Notes under the pieces: generated by a model
The model's input: only the letters and a program-made list of their open reading frames with translations
Databases searched by the model: none
What the model was told of the DNA's origin: nothing
Program-made: the position numbers and the translations under genes
Assembly: GCA_041484665.1 (NCBI GenBank)
Contig: JBGPIA010000001.1
Span: forward strand, 288,001 to 352,000
DNA: 64,000 nucleotides
Source: Candidatus Krumholzibacteriia bacterium
GTDB taxonomy: Bacteria > Krumholzibacteriota > Krumholzibacteriia > JAJRXK01
Direction of reading: 5' to 3'
Shown: positions 28,867 to 32,903 of the stretch, piece by piece
Layout: each line of letters starts with the position of its first letter
How positions within the stretch are numbered: position 1 is the first letter of the stretch

Positions 28867-30846
28867 ATGCTAGGCTGCCTGCGCCCGCTTGCCGCCGTGG
28901 AGGACGCCGCGTTGGCCTCCCAGGAAGACGATCTCCCGTTTGCCGGCGAATACGTCGACTTCGCCCAGCTCAGCAAGGACGAGCTGCAGGCGAAGATGTT
29001 CGAGTTGCTCACGCTGGTGGAGACCAGCCGTGAGCTGCTGCGCGCACGCGACCCCGAGGAGGTGGCGCGCAGCGTGCTCCTCTCGGTGATCGGAGTGCTG
29101 GGCGCGGGATCGGCATGCGTGCTGCGCTTCGATCCGTCCACCGAGCGCCTGGAGCTGCTGCAACAATTCGGTCTGGACGTCTCCGGGCCGGTCGAGGCGC
29201 ACCTCCCGGTGACGGTGGCGGAGGAGTTCGTCGAGGCGGAGGTGCCGCTGCCATTCCGCGCCGACGAGGATCTCGCGAGCGGTCCCGCGCGCACGTTCCT
29301 GCGGCGCTGCGGCGACGCGCTAGCGCCGCTGGGCGCGGAAGTGATCTGCCCGCTTCCCGGGCGCCGCGGGCTCTTCGGCTTCCTGGTGCTCGGCCATCGG
29401 CTGCTCGCCGCCGGCTACTCGGCGCGCGACCTCGAGATGTTCGCCAATCTGGCCGAGCTCTACGTACTGGCGCTGGAGCGCGCCGCCGTGCCGTTCGCCG
29501 CGCCCGAGGCCGCGCGGCCGGAGCCGCCCCAGGTCCAGATGGCCCTGGCCGAGCTGCGCGAGCGCTACCCACCGCTGCAGCAGATCCTGGGCGACTCCAA
29601 CGCCATCTACCAGCTCTTCCGCGACATGGTGGAGCTGGCCGACAGCCGCGCCACCGTCCTGATCCAGGGCGAGAGCGGTACGGGCAAGGAGCTCGTCGCG
29701 CGCGCGATCCACGCCTCGAGCCCCCGGCGCAACGGGCCCTTCGAGGTCGTGGATTGCTCGTCGATCCCCCGCGAGCTGATCGAGAGCGAGCTGTTCGGCC
29801 ACGTGCGCGGCGCCTTCACCGGGGCCGTGCGCGATCGTCGCGGGGCCTTCGACCTCGCCCATCACGGCACGATCTTCCTCGACGAGATCGGCGAGATGAC
29901 CCTCGCCAGCCAGACGCGACTGCTGCGCGTGCTGCAGGAGGGGAAGTTCCGGCCGGTGGGCGGCGAGACCGTGCACAGCGTGGACGTGCGCGTGATCGCC
30001 GCAACCAATGTGGACCTACGTGAGGCGGTGGCGCGCGGCGAGTTCCGCATCGACCTCTTCTATCGGATCTGCGTCTATCCGCTGCGCCTGCCGCCGCTGC
30101 GGGCGCGCGCGGGCGATATCCGGCTGCTCAGCGCTGCGTTCCTGAAGCGCTTCTACGCGGACTACGGCCTCCGGGAACCCGCCATCGACCCCCGTGTGAT
30201 CGAGGCGCTCGAGCTCCACCCGTTCCCAGGCAACGTGCGCGAGCTGCAGAACATCGTGGAGGCGCTGGCCATCCGCAGCCGAGGCCACCAGCGCGTCACG
30301 ATGAGTCAGCTCAACGAAGTGTTCCGCAGCCAGCGCATCCACGCCGAGCCGCTCAAGGCACCCCCCGAGGCCGGGCCCGGCCCCGGGCTCGAGGAGGTCC
30401 CTGCCGCCCCCGGCCGGGCCGGTGCGGGATCTCCCGCCACAGGTGGGGCTGCGCCGTCCGTCGGTGAGCGCCTGCTCGCCGCGTGGCGCAGCACACGCTT
30501 CAACCTGTTGGAGGCCAGCCGGCTGCTGAGTGCCGGCCGGAAGGAAGGCGAGGGTGTGGCTGTCGCGGACCGCGCGCAGCTGACCCACTATCTCGACGGC
30601 GAGATCCTGAAGGCGTTCGTGCACTCCGGCAGCTTGGAAGCGACCGTGGACGCGCTGGCGGCCGGAGCCAAACCCCGCGAGCGGGCGGAGCGCAAGGTCG
30701 CGCGGGTGGTCGGCCGGCTGCTGGCCACGCTGGAGTCGGCGGAGCCAGGCCAAGGGTTCCCGCGGCTGCCACGCGAGTACCGCGGCGCACTGGATGCGCT
30801 GGAGAACAAGGGGGCCGACTGGGTCCGCGCGTCGATGCGGCGCTGA
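28867..30846 (+). CDS. Sigma54-dependent enhancer-binding activator with N-terminal GAF-like domain
   Basis: [49 protein letters not shown]. Start could be ATG 28867 or GTG 28897. Confidence 0.92.
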
Positions 30847-30854
30847 GCCGTCCG

Positions 30855-30893
30855 GAAAAAATAGAGAAGGGGCGCCTCTCGCCAAGGCGCCCC
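30855..30893 (-). terminator. Intrinsic terminator of the candidate ncRNA
   Basis: Minus strand reads GGGGCGCC-TTGGCGAGA-GGCGCCCC-TTCTCTATTTTTT. Confidence 0.75.
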
Positions 30894-31259
30894 CATCAGT
30901 TCTGGCAACCGAAAGGTATTGGGGACCCTTCGATCAGCAAGCGGCCTCTCGCCAAAGCCGCTCGCCTTCGTTGCCAGAGAGGGTTCCTGCGCCCCTGGCG
31001 GGGCGCGTGCGAGAGCTCTCGCCAAACTCCCGGGAACCCAAGCCTTGTGAAGGACCGTCCCTGATCGCCTTTTGCACCGCGCCCGTGTGGGGCACTCTCC
31101 ACGGCCTCGAAGACGTCGCAGTGAGGCGACCGTGGGAGCGCGCGACCCAGAATGGCGCTCAGGTCCGATCTCTCTACCCGCCGGGCGGCCCCCGCTGGGT
31201 CCGGCCGGCTTCGCCGACGAGCGCCGCGACCTTGGATCGCGCTCTCGACAGCGTGGCAG
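30855..31259 (-). ncRNA. Candidate sigma54-dependent structured ncRNA with three UUGGCGAGAG hairpin motifs
   Basis: Perfect -24/-12 promoter upstream; three motif hairpins at 70-nt period; nested stems with G-U pairs on the minus strand; terminal hairpin plus U-rich tail; no credible ORF. Confidence 0.7.
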
Positions 31260-31270
31260 TCTTGGCCAAG

Positions 31271-31285
31271 GCAAGCATGGTGCCA
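31271..31285 (-). promoter_or_regulatory. Sigma54 (-24/-12) promoter
   Basis: Minus strand TGGCAC-CATGC-TTGC, an exact match to the TGGCAC-N5-TTGC consensus. Confidence 0.8.
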
Positions 31286-31310
31286 GCGGCGACGTCCGGG
31301 GGACGAATCG

Positions 31311-31435
31311 ATATAACATATTGAAAATAAAAGAGTTGATTGTTTCTCGACTGCGCCGCTCCCGTTGATTTTGTTGTCTGTCTTTGTTGTTATGACCACA
31401 CTATCTGACTCGAATATGCTGTATGACAACAATTA
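31311..31435. promoter_or_regulatory. AT-rich control region: IHF-like sites and candidate activator-binding repeats
   Basis: TAACATATTGAAA (31314-31326) and AAAAGAGTTGATT (31329-31341) each match WATCAANNNNTTR with one mismatch on the minus strand. TTGTTGTTAT-N29-ATGACAACAA inverted repeat (31384-31432) plus TTGTTGTC at 31371. Confidence 0.55.
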
Positions 31436-31529
31436 GTGTTGCTCGAGGGTGCACCCCACCGTTTCCAAGCAAATGCCGAGATCACCCGGTCATCGCCCGA
31501 ACTCTCGGTCCCTGGTAGACTCCCGCGCG

Positions 31530-32903
31530 ATGTCGGCGGTCCGCACGCTCTGGGTCGGTGCCGAGGCGCTCGTCACGATGGCGCCGGCGGGCACCGTGAT
31601 CCGCGGGGGTTACCTGCGGACCGAGGGGCACCGCGTCGTCGAAACCGGCCCGGGCACCCCGGCCCCCGCGCGCGACGAGGTCGTGCGCCGCCTCGATGGG
31701 TGCGTCGTGGTGCCGGGCCTCGTCAACACGCACCACCACCTCTGCCAGAACCTGACGCGCGCCTACGGGCCGGCCGCCAACGCGAAGCTGTTCGACTGGC
31801 TCGTCGCCCTGTACCCGGTGTGGGCCGGATTCGATCCGCAGAACCTCGCGCTGGCGGCACAGGTGGGCTTTGCGGAGCTGCTGCTGTCGGGCTGCACGAC
31901 GACCAGCGACCATCACTATCTCTTCCCCCGCGGCGCTCCCCCGGATCTGCTGGACGCCACCATCCACGCGGCGCGCGATCTGGGCATCCGTTTCCACGTT
32001 ACGCGCGGCTCGATGAGCGTGGGTGAATCGCAGGGAGGGTTGCCCCCCGACCGCTGCACGCAGGACGAGCAGGACGTCTTGCGCGACTGCCAGCGCGTCG
32101 TCGAGACCTGGCACGACCCGCAACCCTATGCGATGCTGCGCGTCGCACTCGCCCCCTGCAGCCCGTTCTCCGTGAGCGCCGACCTCATGCGCGAAACGGC
32201 GCTGCTCGCCCGCGCGCACGGCGTGCGCCTGCACACGCACCTAGCCGAAACCCTCGACGAGGAGCGCTACTGCCTGGAGCGTTTCGCCCGGCGCCCAGTC
32301 GACTTCCTGGAGGACGTGGGCTGGATGGGCGACGACGTGTGGCTCGCCCACGGGATCCACTTCAGCGACGCCGAGGTGGCGCGCCTGGGCAGACGCCGCA
32401 TCGGGATCGCCCACTGCCCCACCAGCAACATGCGCCTGGGCTCAGGGATCTGCCGCGTGGCCGATCTGCGCGCCGCCGGCAGCCCGGTGGGCCTGGGCGT
32501 CGACGGCAGCGCGAGCAACGACACCGGCCATGCGCTCCACGAGGTGCGCCAGGCGCTCTACCTGCGCCGGCTGGTGGGCGGCGCGTCGGCCATGACCGTG
32601 CTGGAGGCCCTGGAGCTGGCGACCCGCGGGGGCGCTGCGTGCCTGGGGCGCGACGACATCGGTTGGCTGGGGCCGGGCGCGGCGGCCGACTTCGCGGTGT
32701 TTGACCGGTTGGCCGACATCGCACTCAGCGGCGCCCACGACCCGGTCGCGGCGCTGCTGCTGTGCGGGCCGCTGCGGGCACGCACCGTCGTGGTCAACGG
32801 CCGCGTCGTGGTGGACGAGGGCGAGCTGCTCACCGTCGACCTGCCGACGTTGCTGCCGCGCCATCGCGAGGCGGCACAGAAGCTCGTGGAGGCAGCACGG
32901 TAG
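31530..32903 (+). CDS. 8-oxoguanine deaminase-like amidohydrolase
   Basis: PGLVNTHHHLCQNLTRA, SDHHYLFP, RGSMS, APCSPFSVS, HTHLAET, AHCPTSNMRLGSG, GVDGSASND. Confidence 0.88.
   Translation: MSAVRTLWVGAEALVTMAPAGTVIRGGYLRTEGHRVVETGPGTPAPARDEVVRRLDGCVVVPGLVNTHHHLCQNLTRAYGPAANAKLFDWLVALYPVWAGFDPQNLALAAQVGFAELLLSGCTTTSDHHYLFPRGAPPDLLDATIHAARDLGIRFHVTRGSMSVGESQGGLPPDRCTQDEQDVLRDCQRVVETWHDPQPYAMLRVALAPCSPFSVSADLMRETALLARAHGVRLHTHLAETLDEERYCLERFARRPVDFLEDVGWMGDDVWLAHGIHFSDAEVARLGRRRIGIAHCPTSNMRLGSGICRVADLRAAGSPVGLGVDGSASNDTGHALHEVRQALYLRRLVGGASAMTVLEALELATRGGAACLGRDDIGWLGPGAAADFAVFDRLADIALSGAHDPVAALLLCGPLRARTVVVNGRVVVDEGELLTVDLPTLLPRHREAAQKLVEAAR

Follow-up and report, generated by a model that had tools for sequence, protein, structure and literature searches.

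What is encoded in the gap between a sigma54-activator gene and an 8-oxoguanine deaminase gene, and on what would its product act? A first-pass annotation of the window (the whole 64,000-nt stretch of DNA analysed) had placed a sigma54-driven RNA in this gap, with one sequence repeated in the loops of three hairpins, and had offered a protein sponge or a multi-seed small RNA as its function. Here, we report that the probable product is a regulatory RNA, new and conserved, of an uncultured bacterial group, and we describe its promoter, structure, distribution, and candidate target.

Sequences and scope

The window is part of a 5.45-Mb genome (G000); f1 is the Krumholzibacteriota family that includes G000, and f2 and f3 are sister families. 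RNA loci were compared as a set of 14, made up of 10 f1-type activator loci from genomes plus metagenome loci L051, L053, L054, and L057; duplicates and near-duplicates (L052, L055, L056, and L040 to L047) were omitted. Target sites were compared in nine f1 genomes, representing four related genera. Gene-wide statistics in G000 used script-made gene calls (4,000 genes). The IHF-like site and the sigma54 start were placed by the general consensus sequence and spacing.

Promoter and locus

The minus strand carries a perfect sigma54 -24/-12 promoter at 31271..31285 (TGGCAC-N5-TTGC, read from 31285 to 31271), as had been noted at first pass; it is one of 12 such sites in the genome, and its TGGCA-N7-TGC core is invariant in 14/14 loci. 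From the consensus spacing, the RNA presumably starts near 31259. Upstream lies a palindromic activator site of the TGTTGT-N3-ACAACA type (31417..31431), which 8 of the 14 loci carry, with no more than two mismatches, at -143 to -146 relative to the -24 box. Between the two is a conserved AT-rich block (31328..31341, minus strand), an IHF-like site that has one mismatch to the IHF consensus. A survey of 100 palindrome-like sites in G000 gave no further perfect-type sigma54 promoter with a palindrome at the same distance. The locus thus has the layout of a sigma54-dependent small RNA: the promoter (14/14), the fixed-distance palindrome (8/14), and an adjoining gene for a sigma54 activator (bEBP).

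The bEBP gene (28867..30846, plus strand) is convergent with the RNA and encodes GAF and sigma54-activator domains (Sigma54_activat, E value of 4.6e-66), with GAFTGA in the translation and GAF_2/GAF_3 detected on orthologs. Orthologs were found in 8/9 f1 relatives, and at every f1-type locus examined, the RNA and its convergent promoter adjoin the activator; an activator paralog (L039) and a partial match (L060) were without the RNA. The conserved promoter layout and this linkage make the gene the probable activator of its neighbor: the GAF-bEBP would bind the upstream palindrome, IHF would bend the intervening DNA, and the sigma54 promoter would then be opened.

The activator ends in a helical, family-specific C-terminal domain of 130 aa (30454-30843, plus strand; model pLDDT of 92), which is present in 15 of 208 genomes of the phylum (G000, 8/9 f1 relatives, 5/7 f3 genomes, and one weak match). 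Its confident six-helix model matched no solved structure at a Z score of ≥5, and the Atlas leads, HTH_8 among them, were all below 0.9. Helices two and three of this domain differ between f1 and f3, as does the upstream repeat.

On the promoter side, the divergent neighbor is the 8-oxoguanine deaminase gene (31530..32903, plus strand; NF006055 above the cut-off). Flanking genes on that side vary among relatives, and since other genes take the place of the deaminase gene there, it lies outside the unit. No obvious RNA-binding gene was seen among the locus neighbors, as judged from translations only. At L039 (G000:C26), the stretch 3' of the activator paralog holds a convergent gene with a tandem "LAPKQIAS" peptide repeat at its end and short DNA repeats beyond it.

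Structure of the RNA

The predicted non-coding RNA is about 404 nt long (30856..31259, minus strand) and is supported by its fold, strand preference, and covariation. A 413-nt minus-strand segment folded at -223 kcal/mol (z score of -5.1; equaled by 0/100 shuffles), and among 13 loci tested, 12 folded better on the promoter strand than on the complementary one.

All three copies of TTGGCGAGAG are where they had been placed, at 30876, 30946, and 31016 of the minus strand. Exact copies in the 5.45-Mb genome number 6, against 8.9 expected (Markov-5), with three of the six inside these 150 nt, and the count across the window is unremarkable (3 matches at ≤1 mismatch versus 5.5 expected). What stands out is the clustering of this sequence in hairpin loops, not its window count. 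The 70-nt period first described for it is exact in the window and is not kept in the homologs, where the loops of the 3' modules are 62 to 72 nt apart, a spacing set by module size. The proposal of one loop sequence on changing stems holds for the word GGCGA(G), which is kept on variable stems; the 10-mer is specific to G000. GGCGA is found in both junction hairpins in 14/14 loci and in the terminator loop in 11/14. Fifty loops were scored on this word, 44 of which had G as the next base, and an automatic test counted one to five GGCGA loops per RNA.

Two three-way junctions lie in the 3' half. Module 1 (30981..31039, minus strand) consists of an outer stem (31033-39/30981-87), a seed hairpin with a GGCGA loop (31010-31032), and a second hairpin (30989-31006); in its helices (1 to 3), 92 to 94% of cells were paired, and both sides had changed in 12/18 pairs. 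Module 2 (30901..30978, minus strand) has an outer stem (30970-78/30901-09), a seed hairpin with a GGCGA loop (30937-30965), and a variable hairpin (30911-30931), with 89 to 90% of cells paired in helices 4 and 5 and both sides changed in 12/17 pairs. The RNA ends in a terminator hairpin and U-tract (30856..30894, minus strand), the loop of which is the third GGCGA seed (helix 6, 97% paired). The U-tract follows the last hairpin where the first reading had it, with a terminator-like site at 30894-30868. Both outer stems and the three hairpins, proposed at first pass, recur in the minimum-energy structure. The folding proposed for the 5' half was recovered in part: CCACGG/CCGUGG is in the minimum-energy structure, and the long-range pairing GCGCGAUCCA/UGGGUCGCGC is absent from the predicted one.

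The central domain forms a rod with a conserved bulge of the GGCAAGG type, seen in 12/14 RNAs (absent from G000 and L051), and a C-rich loop. Alignment, folds, and a motif scan place this C-rich element at 31119..31131 (minus strand), with ACCCCAC in most homologs and GCCUCAC in the window.

In the first alignment of the 3' half, 85.7% of cells were paired. After realignment, which leans towards the model, the value was 92.3%, with 29/46 pairs changed on both sides, compared with 42 to 53% for slid controls. Sequences of kin can outscore a shuffle control without any structure; the helices are backed instead by the slid controls and by how many types of pair occur. The helices of the 3' half are, by this alignment, supported by covariation, and the RNA is predicted to combine a central rod with a pair of three-way junctions, on which several GGCGAG loops would be displayed. 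No conserved internal open reading frame (ORF) with a Shine-Dalgarno sequence (SD) was common to the homologs.

Distribution and novelty

The same layout of promoter and RNA is found in 14 distinct loci of one family, with a covarying 3' half, and the comparison with these loci, together with the invariant promoter, supports the first-pass call of a non-coding RNA driven by sigma54 from the minus strand. When 151 genomes were searched with a model, the RNA was detected in G000 and 7/8 f1 relatives and, apart from one false match, in 0/142 others; four loci outside the first model scored 36 to 83 bits. The false match, a weak one in G071, is a degP end with a terminator. Weak R2 model matches in G004, G025, G040, G035, and G030 were likewise set aside; six of the seven loci were inspected, and all six were coding sequence or gene ends with terminators. 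A viral contig (L154:582-732) gave a weak 21-bit R2 match, the sole match among the 80 of 119 pattern loci that were scanned.

In G009, the entire gene block, RNA included, occurs twice (C8 and C9; L200 and L201); this genome is listed at 7% contamination. In its close relative G004, the RNA, the activator, and both queried flanking genes were not found, and both target sites (see below) are kept; because the flanking genes are also missing, the absence of the RNA there may be an assembly gap.

Rfam returned only three chance miRNA matches for positions 29500-32500 of the window, all within the activator gene, in line with the novelty supposed at first pass, and Rfam 15 gave no match at an E value of ≤1 for nine related loci. 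No description of the RNA was found in the open-access literature (supplements aside) or Rfam 15; large motif screens could contain it. Open-access papers also yielded no RNA-motif literature on the phylum Krumholzibacteriota.

Family f3 has an RNA of its own between the activator stop codon and a sigma54 site 250 to 280 nt away (L032, L033, L034, L035, and L036). It has a distinct upstream repeat, of the TGATGAATCATC type, and no Rfam match in the two loci scanned.

That the region is a real RNA gene we regard as close to certain. The opposite view, in which the gap is coding sequence, an array of terminators, or repetitive DNA, might appeal to the long ORFs that cross it on both strands, which are expected at 70% GC, and is given almost no credence in the face of one copy per genome, an invariant promoter, covarying stems, strand preference, and no conserved ORF.

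A sigma factor leader as the candidate target

Fourteen strong CUCGCC/UUCGCC hairpin loops lie upstream of genes in G000, one of them in front of a sigma-70 gene that follows degP and is located outside the window (G000:C3:240106-240978, minus strand). This gene was chosen as the target post hoc out of these 14 candidates. It encodes a 290-aa RpoS-like protein, for which RpoS is the best NCBIfam match, below the cut-off. RpoD (584 aa) is encoded separately, which makes the 290-aa protein an alternative, group-2-like factor; its orthologs form a family clade.

The leader loop of this gene, CUCGCCAA, is complementary to UUGGCGAG of the RNA. In 9/9 f1 orthologs examined, CUCGCC stands in or at a hairpin loop 115 to 135 nt before the sigma start, on differing stems (the G007 leader is cut by a contig end). 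The background for such a loop at that position in G000 is 18/3,971 genes (0.45%), and the sigma leader site ranks 3/3,972 genes for accessible pairing. When RNA and leader were scanned without bias, the loop-loop contact came first in eight of the nine pairs, at -7.2 to -12.6 kcal/mol, and second in the ninth. As controls, 0/17 paralogous sigma leaders had the loop near the start, and among 16 leaders homologous to four other candidates, one had it, at another position. The RNA has what trans-pairing calls for: its seed is accessible and matches, as a complement, a site that is conserved in the mRNA of an unlinked gene (9/9 leaders). Of the two functions suggested at first pass, the multi-seed small RNA is the one that gains comparative support from the leader loop (9/9), its rank (3/3,972), and the controls.

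A second contact joins the central bulge, GGCAAGG, to CCUUGCC just before the AUG, with 7 to 8 bp in 4/8 pairs (G001, G005, G008, and G009). In G009, GACAAGG/CCUUGUC replaces GGCAAGG/CCUUGCC, a change from G-C to A-U that amounts to one compensatory pair, and in G000 CCTTGYC precedes only 3/3,971 starts. The second site is absent from G000, G002, and G003 and degenerate in G006; the bulge is still present in 12/14 RNAs. CCUUG can also close a local hairpin within the sigma leader.

From complementarity and conservation, both directly observed, we consider it fairly likely that the GGCGA loops pair with the sigma leader, with repression of the sigma gene as the most likely effect. Any one of the redundant GGCGAG loops would kiss the CUCGCC loop some 115 to 135 nt upstream of the start codon; in several relatives, the GGCAAGG bulge may then pair with CCUUGCC directly before the AUG. 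Pairing so near the AUG would block ribosome loading, which makes repression the likely outcome. In G000, where the second site is missing, the effect would come only through the kissing contact, by decay or by blocking of a standby site. The loops look like pairing seeds rather than protein sites, and the comparison suggests that one sigma factor (sigma54) may control another (a stress-type factor) via RNA pairing.

Several observations temper this reading. The seed is only 6 to 10 bp and far from the ribosome site. Own-species pairs of RNA and leader scored no better than cross-species pairs (permutation P values of 0.57 and 0.64), so the loop flanks show no co-evolution. In G001, G005, and G008, the leader's own downstream stem has GGCGAG, and the loop might pair inside the leader. 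A similar loop also occurs in some f2 leaders, and no GGCGAG RNA was found in the five genomes of that family searched (described below).

Alternative readings

Across G000, CCCCA and CCCAC are about twofold enriched and strand biased at -30 to -21 from start codons, just before the SD. This opens a two-mode reading, in which the GGCGAG loops kiss the sigma mRNA and the CCCCAC loop acts as a decoy, drawing off an undescribed protein by which a CCCCA element is read across the genome; we rate it as rather unlikely. The fuller form, in which that element is read upstream of the SD and the decoy is ancestral, seems unlikely as well, at a shade less. Both draw on the CCCCA counts (45 versus ~19 per bin; 310 versus 129 for the complement), on the resemblance of CCCCA to the central C-rich loop, and on its presence before the SD of the sigma gene in 9/9 f1 and 27/30 f2 leaders (counted by eye). 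In all five f3 genomes, moreover, the same activator is convergent with a sigma54 RNA of ~230 to 250 nt that is C-rich and essentially without GGCGA loops, and f3 sigma leaders carry several CCCCA copies. Against this, the CCCCAC-reading protein is itself putative, the C-rich bias before the SD may merely prevent that site from pairing, the RNA of the window has a degenerate form of the motif, and an anti-SD seed is another possible role for the C-rich loop. For this loop and a G-rich patch of the leader, pairing showed no species match (P value of 0.60). The f3 RNA and f3 sigma leaders showed no shared site in two pairs. Were the two-mode reading true, an uncultured phylum would have CsrA-like global translation control based on a new motif, and the shorter C-rich f3 RNA would be the ancestral form.

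A protein sponge of the CsrB/RsmZ/CrcZ kind, with the GGCGA loops as repeated sites for some RNA-binding protein, appears improbable. It would fit the varying number of loops (one to five per RNA) and the freely replaced stems, and G000 has csrA and five RRM genes. A CsrA-type sponge would, however, predict the same hairpins in mRNA leaders. GGCGA was in a hairpin loop in 3.3% of intergenic cases, compared with 2.6 to 3.8% for 23 control words; GGCGA loops had no peak near start codons; and none of five RRM leaders had a GGCGA hairpin. In genus g2, csrA was found in 0/5 genomes (88 to 98% complete), 4/5 of which have the RNA. The sponge also leaves the complementary leader loop unexplained. 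The idea of titration through the loops, raised at first pass, is accordingly unsupported by loop enrichment in intergenic DNA or leaders or by csrA in g2, and neither RRM proteins nor CsrA gained support as partners. Four of the five RRM-protein genes (G000:C1:1023958(+), C23:26537(+), C12:108448(-), and C18:2531(+); L061-L064) share a conserved leader of ~110 nt, with a UUCUGCC able to pair with GGCAGAA across the SD, a candidate cis-regulatory RNA motif.

The complementarity might also be turned around, so that a CUCGCC hairpin in a processed RNA from the degP 3' region regulates other messages and is titrated by the window RNA. Many identical G-rich seeds fit titration, and the CUCGCC loop lies just past the degP stop, far from the sigma start; yet nine leaders had no terminator-like U-tract after the hairpin, and the AUG-proximal second site favors the sigma message itself. 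We hold this to be very improbable.

Comparison with known RNAs

Several sigma54-dependent small RNAs are linked to bEBPs, namely, Vibrio Qrr (LuxO), Pseudomonas CrcZ (CbrB), and enterobacterial GlmY (GlrR). The Qrr RNAs, which are short and Hfq dependent, pair with master-regulator mRNAs, and CrcZ and GlmY are protein decoys; the window RNA has no Rfam match to Qrr, CrcZ, or GlmY. CsrB and RsmZ display one repeated loop word (GGA) on many hairpins. The window RNA differs from them in its word, GGCGA, in the lack of matching leader sites, and in its occurrence in g2, where csrA was not found. DsrA, RprA, ArcZ, and OxyS act with Hfq on the rpoS leader, opening or blocking a known inhibitory stem. 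Like them, the window RNA is predicted to act on a group-2-like sigma leader; unlike them, it would be a sigma54 RNA with repeated kissing seeds.

The closest parallel in design is RNAIII of Staphylococcus aureus, which PMC4152353 describes as a long, multi-hairpin RNA under a signal-responsive activator, with redundant loops that initiate loop-loop contacts; translation is blocked by a second contact at another place on the regulator mRNA (rot, coa). By the same account, the loops that RNAIII directs at the ribosome site are C-rich, and the RNA is driven by AgrA and encodes delta-haemolysin (PMC4152353). The window RNA instead has G-rich GGCGAG loops in three-way junctions, a sigma54-type promoter, and a predicted target loop ~120 nt upstream, and with no Rfam match, C-rich seeds, or conserved ORF, it shows no membership in the RNAIII family. 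By analogy, it would work like RNAIII but belong to a new family, so that redundant kissing loops would be a design shared with a distant lineage, whose seed chemistry is the opposite, G-rich one.

Pxr of Myxococcus is a sigma54-type small RNA beside a sigma54 activator gene, nla19; it is 108 nt long with three stem-loops and, going by the construct description in PMC5568312, lies downstream of and co-oriented with nla19. The window RNA is convergent with its activator, has repeated seeds, which the PMC5568312 passages do not report for Pxr, and gave no Rfam match to the Pxr family. FopS/RbpB, to the extent set out in the part of PMC11697453 used here, bears no resemblance to it. The window RNA is a member of none of RNAIII, Pxr, Qrr, CrcZ, GlmY, and FopS/RbpB.

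Sequence by itself yields a full, testable circuit at this locus, running from activator, enhancer, and promoter to the structured RNA, its seed, and a target, and both seed and target are short and defined. It would be a case of cross-talk from sigma54 to an RpoS-type factor via RNA, and it illustrates that repeated hairpin loops need not imply a protein sponge.

Sigma leaders in other families and further leader features

A CUCGCCC(C)-type loop is present in 9/30 f2 sigma leaders, comprising 7/7 in genus g15 and two in g68 (a tenth flagged loop fell within the degP coding region), and a similar loop was seen in 2/21 non-family leaders in a first sample. The f2 loops are at L220 and L288-L293 (g15) and at L315 and L316. 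Narrow pattern queries found no GGCGAG RNA in five g15 genomes or in other f2 genomes, nor did the model find one in two of those five.

Two further features recur in the sigma leaders L206-L214. Between about -45 and -25 relative to the sigma start lies a covarying 7-bp hairpin topped by a near-invariant CCGGU. Near -65, there is a strong AGGAGG-like patch without a properly spaced start codon. G000 also has near-identical paralogous genes (C2:220816-221673(-) and C13:49066-49923(+)) for another sigma-70 factor, of 285 aa, which is highly conserved across f1.
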